From a virus (taxonomy: Duplodnaviria; Heunggongvirae; Uroviricota; Caudoviricetes), in IMG/VR virus record IMGVR_UViG_2579778873_000001, positions 9,557 through 73,556 of that record: DNA of 64,000 bases; one strand, given 5' to 3'. The notes under the pieces were generated by a model. It ran no database searches. It had not been told where the DNA came from and saw only the letters and a list, made by a program, of their open reading frames with translations. The position numbers were made by a program, and so were the translations under genes. This document shows positions 9,285 to 47,887 of the stretch, one piece after another. Every line of letters begins with the position of its first letter. Positions within the stretch are counted from its first letter, which is position 1.

Positions 9285-9583
9285 TCCCCCTTCCCTTCCC
9301 AAATCTCCCTGTTTTTTTGGTTATTCAGTGCGTTTCGTTGGTTGCATTCGTCGATCGTGCTGAATAACTGTTCAGCGTATGTCGGATACTTGTTTAACAG
9401 CACTGGCGTGTCTTCTGGCACTAAACAAGGGGAGTAGTCAATCAGATTTGCCTGCGGCCTGCTGGTGGCTTCTACGGTAATTTTCACTGGCACGCTGGTT
9501 GATGGCTTTTGCCCGTTCCCGCTGCATCCTGATAACGTCATCAGGCACACGTACATCGTTAATCCCAGCACGGCGTAACGCAT
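9272..9583 (-). CDS. o-spanin (Rz1-like outer-membrane lipoprotein)
   Basis: Lipobox LSGC after a hydrophobic signal (internal Met MRYAVLG...); starts inside the i-spanin gene in another frame and extends past it (overlapped architecture); periplasmic Cys residues. Confidence 0.55.
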   Translation of the reverse strand: MRYAVLGLTMYVCLMTLSGCSGNGQKPSTSVPVKITVEATSRPQANLIDYSPCLVPEDTPVLLNKYPTYAEQLFSTIDECNQRNALNNQKNREIWEGKGDQGS

Positions 9584-41371: not shown

Positions 41372-41761
41372 ATGGGCTTCCCTTCTCCTGCGGCGGATTA
41401 TGTTGAAAGCCGAATTTCTCTTGATCAGCAACTAATCAGGCATCCATCAGCAACCTACTTCATGCGGGCAGCTGATAGCCATCACCGTGAGGGAATATTG
41501 CAGGGTGCTTTGCTGGTGGTTGATTCCTCGCTTACTCCGGTTGATGGTTCTCTGCTTGTGTGCGCTATGGAGGGTGAATATCGCATAAAGAGATACAGGA
41601 AGTATCCGCGCCAGCACCTGGAGGATTTAAGCACCGGGAGGAAAGAGGCGTTACCAGTGGATGACGATGGATGCACGGGGAGTAATGCTGTTTTTGGTGT
41701 GATCACTCATGTCATCAATGATGTCCGAAGTGGGGAATTTGACGATTGTCCGGTGATTTAA
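41372..41761 (+). CDS. humD: UmuD'-like protein (HumD)
   Basis: 129 aa corresponding to processed UmuD (GFPSPAADYVE..., HPSATYF, S24 peptidase fold) with no N-terminal cleavage segment. Confidence 0.85.
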   Translation: MGFPSPAADYVESRISLDQQLIRHPSATYFMRAADSHHREGILQGALLVVDSSLTPVDGSLLVCAMEGEYRIKRYRKYPRQHLEDLSTGRKEALPVDDDGCTGSNAVFGVITHVINDVRSGEFDDCPVI

Positions 41762-41833
41762 GCTGCAAAGTGCTGGTGCTTTATACCTGTGAAGTTTATA
41801 GTTGTGTACACATAACGAGTACATGAGGTGTTT

Positions 41834-42055
41834 ATGCAATCCATTAACTTCCGTACCGCGCGCGGCAACCTTTCTGAAGTGCTCAACAATGTTGAAGCCG
41901 GGGAAGAGGTTGAAATCACCCGCAGAGGCCGAGAGCCAGCAGTAATTGTCAGCAAGGCTACTTTTGAAGCCTACAAAAAAGCGGCGCTGGATGCTGAATT
42001 TGCATCCCTGTTTGACACCCTGGACTCCACCAACAAGGAACTGGTTAACCGATAA
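41834..42055 (+). CDS. phd: Antitoxin Phd
   Basis: 73 aa from Met [23 protein letters not shown]..., matching P1 Phd as recalled; preceded by GTGTACAC-type palindromes. Confidence 0.9.
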
Positions 42056-42435
42056 TGAGGCATATATCACCGGAAGAACTTATTGCGCTTCATGATGCGA
42101 ATATAAGCCGCTACGGCGGCCTGCCGGGAATGTCAGATCCGGGTAGGGCAGAGGCCATTATCGGTAGAGTTCAGGCCAGAGTTGCCTACGAAGAGATCAC
42201 CGACCTTTTCGAAGTCTCCGCCACCTACCTGGTAGCTACGGCGAGAGGGCATATATTCAATGATGCCAATAAGCGTACCGCGCTAAACAGTGCGCTGCTA
42301 TTTCTACGCCGTAACGGCATACAGGTATATGATTCTCCCGTGCTGGTGGAACTAGCGGTGGGGGCCGCAACTGGTGAAATCCCCGTATCTTCAGTAGCGG
42401 AAAAACTACGTGAATTATTTGGTCCCAATATTTGA
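42055..42435 (+). CDS. doc: Toxin Doc (Fic-fold kinase)
   Basis: 126 aa, [25 protein letters not shown]...[11 protein letters not shown], close to P1 Doc; ATGA-coupled to phd. Confidence 0.9.
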
Positions 42436-42464
42436 AAAGAAGCCCGCTCAACCAGGCGGGCTTC
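42431..42464 (-). terminator. Terminator hairpin between convergent operons
   Basis: gaagcccgc-tcaaccag-gcgggcttc with a T-run on the minus strand. Confidence 0.45.
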
Positions 42465-42518
42465 CTACTATCACTCAATGATTTTTTCTGCTGTCAGCCA
42501 GCTAATTCGGTGATGTTT

Positions 42519-43319
42519 TTAGGCGTCAGCATCCTCCGCTACCTCTGCTTCAACATCAGCCACGGCTTCATCGGACGGTTCTTCTTTGGCCTGCTCTGCA
42601 ATCGCCGCACGGCATTTGGCCCTTGCTGTGGCGATTGCTTCAGCACGTACATCATCAGGAATCGTTGACGTGATATACATATCCAGTTCTTCGGCGCGGA
42701 ACACTGTTTGGTCCAGATATTCGCGTAGCATCCAGGTAAATTCGAAATCACACGCGATAATCTCTGCGCTACCTTCTGCACCATTTGGGAAATGAATAAA
42801 AGCCTGTTTAGCCAAACCGATAACACGACATGCGGTTGCCAAAACAGCGGCAACCAGGTTTACATTTTCACACGCTACGGGCTGATTAACGCCGGAGATT
42901 ACTCCATTTAACTGTCGGTTATATGGAAGGTAGTTTGAGATGCGTTCTACGCGCCATGTGCCAGTCAGGCTGCCATTCTTAAAGATAATTGGTGTAACGG
43001 ATAGCCCAAGCTCGCGTATAAGTCGTTGCGCTATAGCAGGATCATTAAACATGTCTAATGCTACACATTCGAAAGACTGTGCAAGGGTAAACAGTTCTTC
43101 CAGAGAGTAGTCTTTGCCCCTGGCGGTGATGTAACGATGAACGCCGCTTCCTGCATCACTCCATATAGCTACGCCATGCTCTTCATTCAGCTCTTCATTA
43201 AAGCCGAGATACGTCATGATAGTACGTTCAATCGTGTCAAACGGCAGTGACATGTCGGCGTTAACAGCCACCAGCAGGCCATTACGCAAGCGGTATTGAA
43301 TTGCTTTAGTATTTTCCAC
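42519..43319 (-). CDS. Hypothetical protein with acidic C-terminal tail
   Basis: 266-aa ORF. Confidence 0.45.
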   Translation of the reverse strand: MENTKAIQYRLRNGLLVAVNADMSLPFDTIERTIMTYLGFNEELNEEHGVAIWSDAGSGVHRYITARGKDYSLEELFTLAQSFECVALDMFNDPAIAQRLIRELGLSVTPIIFKNGSLTGTWRVERISNYLPYNRQLNGVISGVNQPVACENVNLVAAVLATACRVIGLAKQAFIHFPNGAEGSAEIIACDFEFTWMLREYLDQTVFRAEELDMYITSTIPDDVRAEAIATARAKCRAAIAEQAKEEPSDEAVADVEAEVAEDADA

Positions 43320-43325
43320 GTTAAA

Positions 43326-44027
43326 TCACTCCACTACAAACCAGTCACATGCCAGTAAGTCGCCTACAGAAGGCACCCACGGAACAACTACACCTTGTGC
43401 ATTTTTCAAAGCGAAATGCGTACCATAAGGAGCAAGAGGAGAGTCGAAATTGATTTCAAGCTCTCCATTGATGGCATGTTTTATAGGGGTTAGTCTTGAA
43501 GCGCCGTGTTTGTCTGGAACCAGCCAGCAGAATTGGTTTTCGCCGTTCCACCCGCGCCGGGCAACTTTCTTGCCATCCTTCAGCCACATCAGCGCGTCAG
43601 AAAAGTCGGCTGCTTCAAGGTCGATTTCTTCTTGCTGGGTGGTGATGCCACCAGCAGAAATAGTTACGCTCCCGGTAAGATTAATCATCTCGCCGTTGTC
43701 ATCCGTAATGATGACCGTGGTTCCATTTTTGGAGACGTCGTTAACCAGGCCATAGCGTTCCTCAAATGGTTTCTCCGGGGCATAGAACAGATAACCGTTT
43801 TCATAAACGATCAGATACCCGCCAGTTTTTGGTCGGTGTTTTTGTAAAAACATTGCGTCAACACAAACTGTTGCCCCTTTTGGTTCAACGAGTTCGATGC
43901 TGCCCCAAAGTGGGGCATCAGTTACTCCGAAAATAACAACATTTTTGATTTTCGATGCACTAACGTTTTTGTGAGCTTTGTATTTGGGAAGGAACTTAAA
44001 AAGCTCTTTCGTTGCCATGTTATTCAT
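43326..44027 (-). CDS. Two-domain protein with C-terminal DUF2829 (Tad2-like) domain
   Basis: C-terminal half carries ALMWLKDGKKVARRGWNGENQF ... VVPWVPSVGDLLACDWFVVE, the DUF2829 signature; N-terminal ~135 aa unassigned. Confidence 0.5.
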   Translation of the reverse strand: MNNMATKELFKFLPKYKAHKNVSASKIKNVVIFGVTDAPLWGSIELVEPKGATVCVDAMFLQKHRPKTGGYLIVYENGYLFYAPEKPFEERYGLVNDVSKNGTTVIITDDNGEMINLTGSVTISAGGITTQQEEIDLEAADFSDALMWLKDGKKVARRGWNGENQFCWLVPDKHGASRLTPIKHAINGELEINFDSPLAPYGTHFALKNAQGVVVPWVPSVGDLLACDWFVVE

Positions 44028-44041
44028 AGTCTTTTCTCTGC

Positions 44042-44536
44042 TTATAACTTTTCGTACTGAAGCGGTGAACGCTTAATTTCAAAGTGGCCTTCCGATGTGC
44101 TACCAAAGCCACCAGCACCACGTTCCGTTTCGTTGAGTTCCTCAACCTCGACTAGTGAGACTTGTTCAACACGTTCAAAAATTCCTTGCATGACAGCCAT
44201 TCCAGGCTTGAGACAAACGCCTTCCCCGCCGGGATCAGTAATCAGTTTTGCCATGATTTCGCCGCGATAATCGGAGTCGATAATTCCTACGCAGTTAGCC
44301 AGGCGAGTATGTTTTTTGCAGCCCAATCCGGATCGCGGATAGAGTTTCAGACACCAGCCGGGCGGGATCTCCATAGCCAGTCCGGTATACACCCACCAGC
44401 TTGAGGAAATTGCACCATTGCTATCGACGCATGGTTTTATTTCAACAGCCTCAAAATCCATCGCCGCCGATCCGGAGGTGGCATAAGCTGGAAGTTTTGC
44501 TGCCGGATGTAGGCGTTTCACTTTTACGTAAATCAT
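44042..44536 (-). CDS. dut: dUTP diphosphatase (trimeric dUTPase)
   Basis: Motifs GIIDSDYRGEI and RGAGGFGSTSE. Confidence 0.85.
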   Translation of the reverse strand: MIYVKVKRLHPAAKLPAYATSGSAAMDFEAVEIKPCVDSNGAISSSWWVYTGLAMEIPPGWCLKLYPRSGLGCKKHTRLANCVGIIDSDYRGEIMAKLITDPGGEGVCLKPGMAVMQGIFERVEQVSLVEVEELNETERGAGGFGSTSEGHFEIKRSPLQYEKL

Positions 44537-45009
44537 TGTTTTTTAGCTCTCTGCGTGAAGGTGTAAACCCGACGTTTGATATGTGGAACGGTAGGAACAG
44601 GAAGACAGGAACTTTCAATAACTCCTTGCTCCTCCAGCGATCGCACCGCCCGCAAGAACTGCGACGTGTCGCCGCCAAACTGGCGGGCATAGGTGCTGCC
44701 GTTATGAAGTATTTGAGCTATTACCCGAGCTTTTGTCTGGCTGTCACGATATGCGAATAGCCGCACAGCCTCTTCTGGCGCAATCGCTAACTGATAGCCT
44801 TTCGCGGCACGGTGTCGAATGAATCCATGCGCCAGTAGGTTTTTGAGTTCGTTACGAGTGCGAACAGATCCGTAATCCAGGAAGTGTGGATTGATAACGA
44901 CTGGCTTAAACCATTCCGTAGGTGCTTTAGCTAATAGAGCTAACAGCTTCCCGGATAATTCTGGATAGGAAGACGGGTAACAATTCAGAGATGTGTAATA
45001 AGTTTTCAC
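44533..45009 (-). CDS. Hypothetical protein
   Basis: 158-aa ORF coupled to dut. Confidence 0.4.
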   Translation of the reverse strand: MKTYYTSLNCYPSSYPELSGKLLALLAKAPTEWFKPVVINPHFLDYGSVRTRNELKNLLAHGFIRHRAAKGYQLAIAPEEAVRLFAYRDSQTKARVIAQILHNGSTYARQFGGDTSQFLRAVRSLEEQGVIESSCLPVPTVPHIKRRVYTFTQRAKKQ

Positions 45010-45350
45010 CGACGCCCCCTTGCAGGATAGCGACCTGCATTAGTATCCGGTGCAATAAAGCCGGTAGTGGGGCGAGTGAAAGCGAGATTAATCTTCTCGA
45101 CCATAGTGCGATAATTTTCCTGATAGTGGGCCAGGAGTTTTTCGGCGGCAATGATGGTTACTTTCCGGACGTAGCTTTCTGCTTCCTCCAGATTTCGCCA
45201 GTTTTTTTCGAGGGTAAACACAGGGACGGCCTCAAGCCCGGTCATGATGCCGAACACAACGACAGCATGACTGTTCTTAACACCAGCAGCGAAGGTTACG
45301 GTGTAACCATCCACCTTGAAGCGTCTTGATTCCGTGATTTGACTCTGCAA
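45006..45350 (-). CDS. Hypothetical protein, first gene of an operator-controlled operon
   Basis: 114-aa ORF with an operator about 55 bp upstream. Confidence 0.4.
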   Translation of the reverse strand: MQSQITESRRFKVDGYTVTFAAGVKNSHAVVVFGIMTGLEAVPVFTLEKNWRNLEEAESYVRKVTIIAAEKLLAHYQENYRTMVEKINLAFTRPTTGFIAPDTNAGRYPARGRR

Positions 45351-45404
45351 AGCACCCTCCTAAATAGGCGAGGGTACTTTACATCAAAGGCGTTAATCTA
45401 AAAA

Positions 45405-45422
45405 GATGTGTTAGAAATTTAA
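45405..45422. promoter_or_regulatory. C1-type operator motif (GATGTGTTAGAAATTTAA)
   Basis: Between the recombinase gene end and the 45350 start. Confidence 0.45.
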
Positions 45423-45423
45423 T

Positions 45424-46452
45424 TTACGAATCCATCAGGCGGCTATTAGCCCCCACAGACACACCGCCACGGCGCAGATACCGCATAAGTGTTTCCGGTT
45501 TCTTCCAGGTTCCTTCCTGCATGATCTCCACCATAGACACCTGCTTTTCAGCCATATCAATAGCGGCCCCGACGCGTGCACTATGCCCGGTCCACGTCCG
45601 GTATCTCCCTTTGTTTGGCGTAGCATCTCTTTTATTCAGCAACACCCAGGCGTCGCTGAATATTTTCTCCATTGCAGGTGCAGTAAGGGGCGTTGTCGTG
45701 ATCCTGGCCTTATTGCTACGGTGTATCGGCGGGAACAGCACTGCGTCACGATGTTCGCGAAGCCCGGAAACATCCAGCCAGTCATTCAGCACAGCGGTAG
45801 TGCGACGGGAAAGCACCTTATCAAGCCCGGCGGCGGTCGTTATTGTCTTCGTGTGTGAAATATGTAGCGTGACAGTGTCACCTGTTTGGTCCAGATCTCC
45901 TACACGAATACGCGAGATTTCCGACATACGCATCAGCGTATTGTATGCAACAAAGAGAAAAGCCCGGTTGCGCAGGTCCACCAGCCGTTCTGACCTGGAC
46001 AACAGGACGTCGAGCAGTTTCAGATCGTCCCACCGCAGCGGTATAGCCTGGCCTGTTCGTTCGCCTTTTTCAGTTGCCGCTTCGCGCCGGATGCGCCGCA
46101 TAGCCAGAGAAACACTTTTATCATCCGAAAGTGGCGGAAGGCCACAATGCGAAAGCAGCATGTTCAGCATGGCGTAGTGCTTATCAATGGTGGTCGAAGC
46201 CAGATCGGCATCATGCAGCTGAAGAAAATACTCGCGGGCCATTTCTGGTGAGATCGGGAACCAGGCGAGCTGGCGAGCGTGACACCAGCGCGCCCAGGAA
46301 TGAAACACCAACCGGAGGTCGCGCAGAGTATTCGGCGCATAAGCCCCCTGGTCATTCATGAACCGCATAAAGTTTTCTGCGGCTTCCTGGTACTCTTTGC
46401 CAATGTTGCGCAGAAAACCACCGGAACTGCCAGAGATAATTAATTCTCCCAT
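45424..46452 (-). CDS. Cre-family tyrosine recombinase (Dre-like)
   Basis: 342 aa colinear with P1 Cre (WFPISPE, LNMLLSHCGLPPLSD, AFLFVAYNTLMRMSEISRIRVGDL, WTGHSARVGAAIDMA, LMRYLR); rox-like site 150 bp upstream. Confidence 0.85.
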   Translation of the reverse strand: MGELIISGSSGGFLRNIGKEYQEAAENFMRFMNDQGAYAPNTLRDLRLVFHSWARWCHARQLAWFPISPEMAREYFLQLHDADLASTTIDKHYAMLNMLLSHCGLPPLSDDKSVSLAMRRIRREAATEKGERTGQAIPLRWDDLKLLDVLLSRSERLVDLRNRAFLFVAYNTLMRMSEISRIRVGDLDQTGDTVTLHISHTKTITTAAGLDKVLSRRTTAVLNDWLDVSGLREHRDAVLFPPIHRSNKARITTTPLTAPAMEKIFSDAWVLLNKRDATPNKGRYRTWTGHSARVGAAIDMAEKQVSMVEIMQEGTWKKPETLMRYLRRGGVSVGANSRLMDS

Positions 46453-46604
46453 GAAACTATTTCGCCTCTATATACATATGACGCTACGCGAAAAATATAA
46501 AAATGACAGGGTAGCTATAAGTTAATTTTCAAAATACAAGCCTTTGATTCGAGGCACGTATTTTCAGTGATGTCAATACTGTTCATCTACACATGATTAT
46601 AGCC

Positions 46605-46636
46605 TAACTTTAAATAATCCCCATTATTTAAAGTTA
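46605..46636. other. rox-like recombination target site (14-bp inverted arms, 4-bp spacer)
   Basis: TAACTTTAAATAAT-CCCC-ATTATTTAAAGTTA: perfect 14-bp inverted repeats; arms match the D6 rox arms as recalled, spacer CCCC. Confidence 0.65.
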
Positions 46637-46816
46637 TAAAATGCCGATTTTTTTTGTAATCCATCATAGATTGATGATGGACAGTAACACGTTGCCTTCA
46701 TGGTCTTTAATTTGCGAAGTGTGGTTTCAACGGTTGGTTTTCTAAAGTTGATGACAAAAAAATCATAGTTCGATCCTTTACTCACTCTGTTATTCGACAT
46801 AGATTTGTCATAGGGA

Positions 46817-46836
46817 TTTTATGTTAGAAAACTAAA
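46817..46836. promoter_or_regulatory. C1-type operator motif upstream of the candidate repressor gene
   Basis: ttttatgttagaaaactaaa, 14 bp upstream of the 46850 start. Confidence 0.5.
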
Positions 46837-46849
46837 TCGAGTAGGAATA

Positions 46850-47887
46850 ATGAGTAAGAAGTCGATCGAGAAAGAGTACAAACGGTTCCTGCAAACCGCT
46901 GAACGGTGGAAAGAGCTGGTGGTCGCAAACTCTGTTTTCCATGATACCAGTTATGCTGGCGAGGAATTCCGCCACGTTGCACTAACACACGACCAAAATG
47001 TACTAGAAGAAGCTGAAAAGTGCCTCGCAGAATGGAAAGCCTTTGTTGACTTGTGCCGTAATGCTGACGGCAAAGCGTCTAACATTGTTGAGTCTGTATA
47101 TTCTCCGATCCCATTCATCATTGAGGACACCAATCAAAGCACGCATGTTGTTGTGCAAAGCGCTACAACAACACGTACATTTACACGTGAACAATTGCTC
47201 AAAAAATACGACAAAATCATAAAGAAAAGCCTGAAAAATAGGGTTTTTTCTCAAATCGTAGGTGCTCTTGAAGAAGAACAGCGCTTCTTTGAAGCTGAGC
47301 CTGAAGGCGAGGTCTACCGGGCGCGTAAAGAGGCATATACAGATGTTGTGCTGACAACAAACATCGAAGGCAGCAATGCCCTTTCTCGCTTTAGAGTTGG
47401 CGCACATGGCGCATTCGTTTTCGCAAAACTACCGAAGACAACGATCCCCGTTGTCAATAATGTTGGTGAACGCCGTAGCATTACAATTTATTCTGGCGTC
47501 GAATCGGTGCCTTGCAGCCTTCTCGGCGACTTTAGCTTATATCGTGTTCGTGACCTGGAAAAACATCAGCCAAGCTACGTTGCGAAGTCGTATATCTTAA
47601 GGAACATCGATATCCGCAACGAAAACCTTAAGCAGAAATCAGCTAAGATGCTGGAGGATGCCGATCCGGCTATTCGCCATATCATTGAACGTAAGATTCG
47701 TACATCGCGTGAAGCAATGGCAAGGCTGGATAAAATGGATCTGGAATTGTTAGACGTAATGATGGCCTCTGGAGACGACCTGACCGGCATCAAACTGAAT
47801 GAAGCGCGTAAAAAATACGGCAAAGCAATCGAAGAACGTTACGGATACACATTCCCCCAAACGCAGCGCGCCGCAAAGCTCTGGTAA
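46850..47887 (+). CDS. Hypothetical protein; positional candidate for the C1-type master repressor
   Basis: 345-aa ORF in the position the c1 operon holds in P1 (divergent from the recombinase across the lox-like site, convergent with pacB) with an operator in its promoter; no sequence-level confirmation. Confidence 0.4.
   Translation: MSKKSIEKEYKRFLQTAERWKELVVANSVFHDTSYAGEEFRHVALTHDQNVLEEAEKCLAEWKAFVDLCRNADGKASNIVESVYSPIPFIIEDTNQSTHVVVQSATTTRTFTREQLLKKYDKIIKKSLKNRVFSQIVGALEEEQRFFEAEPEGEVYRARKEAYTDVVLTTNIEGSNALSRFRVGAHGAFVFAKLPKTTIPVVNNVGERRSITIYSGVESVPCSLLGDFSLYRVRDLEKHQPSYVAKSYILRNIDIRNENLKQKSAKMLEDADPAIRHIIERKIRTSREAMARLDKMDLELLDVMMASGDDLTGIKLNEARKKYGKAIEERYGYTFPQTQRAAKLW

Follow-up and report, generated by a model that had tools for sequence, protein, structure and literature searches.

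The gene at positions 43326-44027 of the window (the whole stretch of 64,000 nucleotides analysed here, positions 9,557 to 73,556 of IMG/VR virus record IMGVR_UViG_2579778873_000001) raises a simple question: the protein that it encodes ends in a Tad2 domain, known from phage proteins that sequester immune signals, but starts with a long N-terminal part. What is this part, and what does it do there? At the nucleotide level the region shares 97.8% identity with Escherichia phage D6, a plasmid prophage related to P1; the element is accordingly a temperate D6-like phage-plasmid.

The gene is an open reading frame (ORF) of 233 amino acids on the minus strand, complete from its ATG start. An earlier sequence-only reading had given exactly these coordinates, and the two strings that it quoted, KDGKKVARRGWNG and VPWVPSVGDLLACDWFVVE, are both found in the translation. 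Three parts follow one another: a predicted OB-fold module (residues 13-97, positions 43737-43991, minus strand), apparently related to the Dec protein of phage L and to the N-domain of the sponge RyR Tad; a beta-rich linker (residues 98-134, 43626-43736, minus strand; SKNGTTVIITDDNGEMINLTGSVTISAGGITTQQEE), which resembles the Dec spike and is kept in phage D6; and a Tad2 domain (residues 141-233, 43329-43607, minus strand), a helix alpha1 with a beta-sheet core, which contains a variable insertion between strand beta2 and the next core strand (residues 172-201, 43425-43514, minus strand). The protein families of PHROG divide the protein in the same way: PHROG 872 spans its full length (E 3.4e-53), while phrog_11049 is limited to residues 11-98 (E 2.8e-24) and phrog_1048 to residues 98-233. 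This split coverage suggests a modular build.

The answer that we prefer, with a probability of about 0.72, is that the gene encodes a Tad2-type sponge for a TIR-derived signal of the ADP-ribose (ADPR) type, with the OB-fold module and the linker as optional accessories.

The Tad2 domain

The sequence-only reading had recognised a Tad2-like DUF2829 domain at the C-terminus, and a hidden Markov model (HMM) search of Pfam-A bears it out: PF11195.14, now called 'Tad2-like' and formerly DUF2829, matches residues 141-232 over profile positions 2-73 of 73, with a score of 77.4 bits (gathering cutoff 25; E=1.3e-21). A phmmer search against the sequences of the PDB finds ModTad2 as the best match (9EIB, E 3.6e-13), followed by Tad2 8V3E, SptTad2 8WJD, SPO1 Tad2 8SME, HgmTad2/AcrIIA7 8KBI (E 9e-7) and AcrIIA7 9KZR (E 1.8e-6); the matches cover five experimentally characterised Tad2 sponges. 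Structure prediction, which the same reading had proposed for both domains, gives a Tad2 fold for the C-terminal part and a Dec-like OB-fold for the N-terminal part. The AlphaFold2 monomer model, built from 52 homologues, has a predicted local distance difference test score (pLDDT) of 78-89 in the Tad2 core, and the top 24 matches of the model in Foldseek are all Tad2 structures, with a target-normalised template modelling score of up to 0.84 (8V3E).

The HMMER alignment to SPO1 Tad2 predicts a pocket formed by W160, N161, W217, S220 and D223, equivalent to W25/N26/W73/S76/D79 in SPO1 Tad2 and to W21/N22/W87/S90/D93 in HgmTad2. Four of these residues (W160, W217, S220 and D223) are invariant among the 52 homologues, and N161 is conserved in at least 90% of them. 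SPO1 Tad2 holds gcADPR, a cyclic form of ADPR, by W25, N26, W73 and D79, with contributions of S76 and T78 (10.1101/2023.05.01.538930), and the equivalent residues of HgmTad2 are W21/N22 and W87/S90/T92/D93 (10.1101/2023.11.15.567273).

By analogy with the solved homologues, the C-terminal domain would assemble as the Tad2 homotetramer, a dimer of dimers. Tetramerisation of Tad2 is mediated by helix alpha1, and the N-terminal fusion joins the domain at the start of this helix. The signal would be bound by W160 and N161 of one protomer and by W217, S220 and D223 of another; among the Thoeris signals, 3'cADPR/gcADPR, His-ADPR and N7-cADPR are candidates. With its signal sequestered, the host effector would stay off during lytic growth. 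The insertion occupies the site at which a second pocket, for the cyclic dinucleotides or mononucleotides of CBASS or Pycsar, is built in other Tad2 proteins, and may provide such a pocket here: the same insertion site forms a second, cyclic-nucleotide pocket in HgmTad2, SptTad2 and MoTad2 (10.1101/2023.11.15.567273; 10.1101/2025.08.24.671296). ModTad2, the closest solved relative, holds His-ADPR in its main pocket and cUMP in the second, and the Tad2 clades bind, variously, 3'cADPR, His-ADPR, N7-cADPR, cyclic dinucleotides or cUMP/cCMP.

The protein thus shares with the known Tad2 sponges (SPO1 8SME/F/G, ModTad2 9EIB/8V3E, HgmTad2/AcrIIA7 8KBI-M, SptTad2 8WJD) the HMM family, the fold of helix alpha1 plus a beta-sheet, the W-N / W-x-P-S-x-x-D pocket, a variable insertion after beta2, and the fact of being encoded by a phage. 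It differs from the solved ones by the residues on the adenine side of the pocket (G222, N209, Q211 and V215) and by a 30-residue insertion unlike any of theirs; the known sponges stand alone, with about 90-105 residues, whereas this one has an N-terminal extension of 140.

The Tad2 call itself was already known. An identical protein (P0001, 100% identity, on a 91.5-kb contig) is annotated in RefSeq as 'DUF2829 domain-containing protein [E. coli]', and Tad2 has been reported in D6- and P1-related phage-plasmids: 'Tad2 AcrIIA7 (anti-Thoeris)' is listed in 93% of the D6-like and 56% of the P1-like ones from clinical isolates (10.1101/2025.09.12.675607). The gene is found on 229 plasmids of about 90 kb in PLSDB, from E. 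coli, Salmonella, Shigella and one Klebsiella record, nearly all typed as non-mobilizable. This part of the protein is therefore ordinary, one more annotated sponge in clinically common phage-plasmids of E. coli, Salmonella and Shigella; what deserves pursuit is the Dec-related module, which keeps turning up alongside immune-signal sponges.

The N-terminal module

The sequence-only reading had left the first ~135 residues unassigned, which is true at the level of Pfam and NCBIfam: neither matches residues 1-140. PADLOC has no match for the N-terminal part either, and no solved sponge matches it in structure. The module model, built on a 118-sequence alignment, has a pLDDT of 89.5 and a predicted template modelling score of 0.80, and two comparisons point to Dec (PDB 6E3C): a Foldseek search with the full model (E 3.9e-3), and the profile of the family described below, whose sole match among all PDB sequences is Dec (E 2.3e-4). 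We take the N-terminal half to be, as modelled, an OB-fold module related to Dec.

The pairwise alignment to Dec extends beyond the module into the Dec spike, where MINLTGSVTISAG faces TITLTGAVTGSAS: the linker (37 residues) has the position and the length of the spike and shares this motif with it. As a monomer, the linker is modelled with low confidence, as four short strands with a pLDDT of 55-59; the Dec spike (residues 99-134), needed for capsid binding, acquires its fold only when Dec is trimeric (PMC11398494).

Gathering the family of the module depends on the method. Word-indexed homology search with the N-terminal 134 residues gave close relatives only, and the wider family needed an exhaustive HMMER search: residues 1-135 then match 1,756 representative clusters at E<=1e-3, over residues ~12-97, and a profile search of a set of 5.8 billion proteins yields at least 7,245 clusters. 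The best-scoring of the latter are nearly all stand-alone proteins of 83-130 residues, with no Pfam domain and no name. The family, which Pfam does not cover, corresponds to PHROGs 11049/872/9467 and includes the N-domain of RyR Tad; tandem duplications of the module exist. Its motif reads LPxYKCHKxVxAxKI ... KHxPxxGGYxVxYxDGYxSxSPxxxFExGY, with near-invariant basic and aromatic loop residues H19, K20, K26, K63, H64, Y71, Y75 and Y79. The module of the window scores 87.3 bits against an HMM made from 31 stand-alone members, and departs from near-invariant residues at five positions (C to A18, D to N77, S to F81, S to A83 and G to R91). Dec, when aligned, is without most of the near-invariant polar residues of the family (H, K, K, H, Y, D, Y, S, S), and thus looks like a divergent offshoot of it.

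Most informative are the domains to which the module is fused. Our census covers the 144 best-scoring representatives of the search with residues 1-135, a search seeded from the Tad2 fusion. Pfam partners among them are Tad2 (8), Sequestin PF21825 (5), Acb4 PF13876 (4), the Acb2/Tad1 hairpin (1) and RyR (1); the others are singletons, such as DUF4406, DUF2158, AlpA and DUF551. The only partners seen more than once are thus three sponge families, Tad2, Sequestin and Acb4, and with the hairpin and RyR Tad the module is fused to five families of immune-signal sponges. The Acb4 fusions were confirmed one by one (P0132, P0224, P0254, and P0226, in which Acb4 comes first). Two proteins join the module to Sequestin without Tad2 (P0190 and P0217), P0199 has both Tad2 and Sequestin, P0192 has RyR, and four close relatives of the window protein (P0067, P0074, P0088 and P0100) carry an added C-terminal Sequestin domain. 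Since the matches in the set of 5.8 billion are almost all stand-alone and Pfam-less, the census cannot be extended from them.

Fusions of this kind have a precedent. Tal et al. identified PF13876 as the CBASS sponge Acb4 and PF21825 as the 3'cADPR sponge Sequestin, the latter by 'guilt by fusion', sponges being often fused to each other; their Acb4-Tad2 protein of Pasteurella phage Pm86 inhibits Thoeris I as well as CBASS (10.1101/2025.07.12.664507). Like Acb4-Tad2 of Pm86, Tad2-Sequestin and Acb4-Sequestin (Ab09 gp59), the window protein is made of a sponge domain, here Tad2, and a small phage module; unlike them, where both halves are proven sponges, its partner is an OB-fold module that does not belong to any recognised sponge family.

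The closest parallel is RyR Tad, gp68 of Pectobacterium phage CB1, whose C-terminal RyR-repeat domain sequesters gcADPR and suffices for activity; its N-domain (residues 1-86), described as a 'fold of unknown function', has no activity of its own against type I Thoeris and acts in dimerisation (10.64898/2026.06.04.730250). This N-domain matches the HMM of the module with 26.6 bits, through YxSHKxVxA and GYLVVY...SWSP...F, with the middle third missing, and in P0192 the module, there complete, is fused to a RyR-Tad-like domain (E 1.5e-26). Both proteins thus have an N-domain of the same family before a C-terminal sponge for an ADPR signal, and the dispensability of the gp68 N-domain parallels the deletion found in phage D6 (next section). 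The differences are that the sponge of RyR Tad is a RyR repeat and not Tad2, and that the gp68 N-domain is shortened and forms a domain-swapped dimer.

The surroundings of the family are those of accessory genes. Stand-alone modules, in the four neighbourhoods inspected, lie among small accessory ORFs on phage-like contigs; none of the four has an adjacent sponge recognisable by Pfam, and there is thus no 'island' evidence. Relatives found in other phages are placed in early or moron regions (the early operon of SopranoGao; after the lysis genes of Bas106), and none of the relatives examined lies in a head-gene cluster. Two known proteins were considered as identities for the module and rejected, in both cases with no structural match: Lockin forms hexamers and does not occur in complete phage genomes, and Acb5, with W38/R10/H61, is enriched among actinophages.

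Variation of the locus

The orthologue in phage D6, orf114 (YP_009914791, 146 amino acids; NC_050154 88126-88566), lies at the same locus, upstream of isaA. It has undergone an exact in-frame deletion of 237 nucleotides, corresponding to residues 21-99 of the window protein (window 43731-43967), between two CAAAAA repeats: the OB module is gone, the linker and the Tad2 domain are kept, and the surrounding DNA is ~99% identical. The insertion of D6 is a different allele, 8 residues shorter than that of the window, and is the sole strongly divergent patch between the two, with near-identical flanks.

Phage SJ46 (KU760857 43686-44531) has the order ssb, Tad2-like gene, isaA, with hxr and the dar anti-restriction operon adjacent. 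Its protein J46_0048 has the full three-part architecture at 64% identity, with an insertion of the D6 type and with OB and linker alleles that differ. P1 (NC_005856 21051-24132) has no Tad2-like gene: ssb, whose transcription unit is under the C1 operator Ossb, is directly followed by isaA. The conjecture that isaB of P1 is a remnant of the gene split by the insertion sequence IS1 was rejected, as P1 is without the cassette and isaB is unrelated. P1 isaA and J46_0048 are annotated with the same 56-residue upstream leader (VVQTPTKARTRK...), apparently a start annotated too far upstream. RCS47 (NC_042128 15495-15944) has a Tad2-like gene truncated by an IS26-bounded insertion with sugar-metabolism genes; together with IS1 at the equivalent place of P1, this makes the locus a recurrent insertion site.

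Another rearrangement is seen in P0059 (241 amino acids), a fusion of dUTPase to Tad2 carried by some D6-like elements, without the OB module and without most of the linker. It arose by a deletion that brought the end of dut (...ERGAGG) together with ...ITTQQEEIDLEAADF at an A-G-G common to both, and the allele counts 15 member sequences, on contigs of up to 88.6 kb. Together, the D6 deletion and P0059 indicate that the N-terminal module is dispensable in nature; with the gene-less P1, they provide natural controls. P0010 (306 amino acids), in which a phage tail-fibre repeat (PF03406) precedes OB module, linker and Tad2, may have arisen by rearrangement with a tail-fibre gene, or may be an artefact of assembly or annotation.

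Finer variation appears when identity is computed segment by segment across 53 proteins of the P1/D6 group. The OB modules fall in classes of about 98%, 65% and 59% identity, the linkers in classes of about 95%, 80% and 45%, and the insertions in classes of about 93%, 23% and 10%; the C-terminal segment is either 91-100% or 69% identical, and the core from alpha1 to beta2 (residues 135-171) is 100% identical in most of the proteins. The junction EIDLEAADFSDALMWLKEGK is common even to proteins with entirely different N-termini, and at least four length alleles of the insertion exist among close relatives. The classes combine in nearly all arrangements, the linker assorting independently of both OB module and insertion. 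Such free combination around a constant core is the mark that recombinational shuffling leaves at an arms-race locus, and the replacement of the insertion by other alleles in close relatives suggests the tuning of a second specificity. The locus behaves as an arms-race cassette: absent in P1, truncated by IS26 in RCS47, trimmed in D6, and with segments that reassort. Its OB, linker and insertion alleles, reassorting around an invariant core, make it a good model for sponge specificity diversifying by recombination.

One common allele has a modified pocket. P0015 and related alleles of 216 amino acids, found on at least 30 contigs, have EWK in place of the ligand motif GWN, WLPSVDD in place of WVPSVGD, and a short unrelated insertion; judging by these residues, this allele may have a different ligand specificity.

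Roles of the fused protein and its neighbours

The sequence-only reading had proposed a fused anti-defence sponge or a nucleotide-binding regulator. The sponge is well supported for the C-terminal half, by HMM, fold and conserved pocket residues, but this support does not extend to the N-terminal half as a second sponge; nothing in the analysis turned up in support of the regulator. The genomic setting agrees with a sponge in P1-type relatives, where the gene adjoins the dar operon and lies downstream of the C1-repressed ssb promoter. Module and linker, for their part, would most likely add an oligomerisation or scaffold interface, as the N-domain does in RyR Tad and in keeping with the dispensability of the module in D6, or else bind a second ligand.

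Several points weigh against a sponge of this kind, or limit what can be said of it. On the adenine side of the pocket and among the water-coordinating positions, SPO1 Tad2 differs from the window protein at five places (T78 to G222, I63 to L207, T65 to N209, D67 to Q211 and H71 to V215). As these positions vary among functional Tad2 proteins of other specificities, they bear on the identity of the ligand and not on membership in the family; however, with this side not conserved and with ligands that differ from clade to clade, the ligand cannot be named from the sequence, and the pocket residues do not give its specificity. In the founding study, one of the five tested Tad2 homologues did not inhibit type I Thoeris. 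The insertion is modelled with low confidence (pLDDT below 50), and the likeness of the linker to a trimerising spike might conflict with the formation of a tetramer. A scan for sigma-70 promoters in 41700-46900 gave 0 sites, against 6.4 +/- 2.6 in shuffled sequence, and no C1 operator of the P1 type is found anywhere in the window. Finally, the largest functional survey of Tad2 left out fusions such as this one: Hadary et al. removed sponge proteins with 'PF21825 or PDB 6E3C' domains (10.1101/2025.08.24.671296), so that Dec-like fusions are known but stand outside the survey, and the motifs of the window protein do not occur in its supplements.

There is also the possibility that the module binds an immune signal, or acts against defence in some other way, in which case the protein would neutralise two signals; we find this doubtful, though worth keeping in view. 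The fusion census is what speaks for it: sponge families are its only recurrent Pfam partners, with two more added by the Acb2/Tad1 hairpin and RyR, in either order (Acb4 comes first in P0226) and also without Tad2 (P0190, P0217), and the same logic led to Sequestin (10.1101/2025.07.12.664507). The dominant form of the module is a stand-alone phage protein of ~90 residues in early or accessory regions; tandem duplications and near-invariant basic and aromatic loop residues are also in its favour, OB-folds typically binding nucleotides, oligomers or small anions. Yet the gp68 N-domain is inactive against type I Thoeris, even if it is shortened and lacks the middle of the module (10.64898/2026.06.04.730250); the window allele has lost several near-invariant residues (A18, N77, F81, A83, R91); D6 has deleted the module; and the census is restricted to best-scoring representatives of a search that started from a Tad2 fusion. 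With sponges as the only recurrent partners, which is evidence of the Sequestin type, we nominate the module as a candidate anti-defence or sponge-accessory domain. The broader conjecture, that the whole family of more than 7,000 clusters consists of anti-defence domains, a new sponge or binder related to the Dec OB-fold, is equally tentative; if it were true, the window protein would be two-headed, and thousands of ~90-residue 'hypothetical proteins' of early regions would be counter-defence factors. What is newly linked in any case, as one very large Pfam-less family, is the Tad2 extension of P1/D6 elements, the N-terminal fold of RyR Tad and the Dec OB-fold.

The homology with Dec, which includes the spike motif, invites another conjecture: module and linker might trimerise on the mature capsid, as Dec does, and display or load the Tad2 domain. 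We consider this improbable. Dec belongs to the virion and carries no additional domain, whereas the window gene has a Tad2 domain, a patchy presence that varies among elements with related capsids, and an accessory context (cre, dut, isaA, phd/doc) away from head genes, as have its relatives in the early or moron regions of unrelated phages. P1 virions are stable without the gene, and proteomics found no decoration protein in them (PMC9024508); D6 is without the OB domain, the part that contacts the capsid in Dec; most members of the family are spike-less, and residues 1-98 of Dec alone do not bind capsids (PMC11398494). Dec itself, lacking most conserved residues, looks like the offshoot, and a sponge outside the head of a myovirus would stay out of the infected cell. 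Still less probable is a role as an anti-CRISPR protein of the AcrIIA7 type, or another role of DUF2829 apart from sequestration, although AcrIIA7 entries (8KBI, 9KZR) are among the PDB matches. The residues that are conserved belong to the ADPR pocket, and the E. coli and Salmonella hosts of D6/P1 elements are not known to carry type II CRISPR-Cas. DUF2829 was first tied to Cas9 inhibition in a metagenomic screen (cited in 10.1101/2023.05.01.538930), but HgmTad2/AcrIIA7, on retest, did not inhibit SpyCas9 and bound gcADPR and cyclic dinucleotides (10.1101/2023.11.15.567273).

We now turn to the neighbours of the gene. The order on the minus strand is: cre-like recombinase, orf117, orf116, dut, the Tad2-like gene, isaA-like gene. 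That the gene lies next to dut had been remarked by the sequence-only reading, and rightly so: the dUTPase ORF (44042-44536, minus strand; PF00692, E 1.7e-14; PHROG 135) lies 14 nucleotides upstream on the same strand, and overlaps orf116, further upstream, by 4 nucleotides. This adjacency is specific to D6-type elements and is not conserved, and thus carries little weight. The partner kept in D6-type and P1-type elements alike is the isaA-like gene downstream (42519-43319, minus strand; PHROG 2326, E 4.6e-135), whose counterpart in D6, orf113, carries the description 'similar to P1 isaA'; the upstream gene in P1-type elements is ssb. The isaA-like gene, orf116 and orf117 have no match in Pfam, NCBIfam, PADLOC or the PDB sequences; the first could be another accessory or anti-defence gene. 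These three minus-strand ORFs (42519-43319, 44533-45009 and 45006-45350) are packed tightly with the Tad2-like gene, stop and start codons overlapping or lying side by side, and a terminator scan places a terminator-like hairpin at 42457-42442, after the isaA-like gene. The Cre-like tyrosine recombinase (45424-46452, minus strand) is a backbone gene of P1/D6 elements. On the plus strand, 41828-42435 and 41372-41761 hold further genes of this backbone: the Phd/YefM antitoxin with the Doc toxin of the Fic family, and a UmuD-like S24 peptidase (humD).

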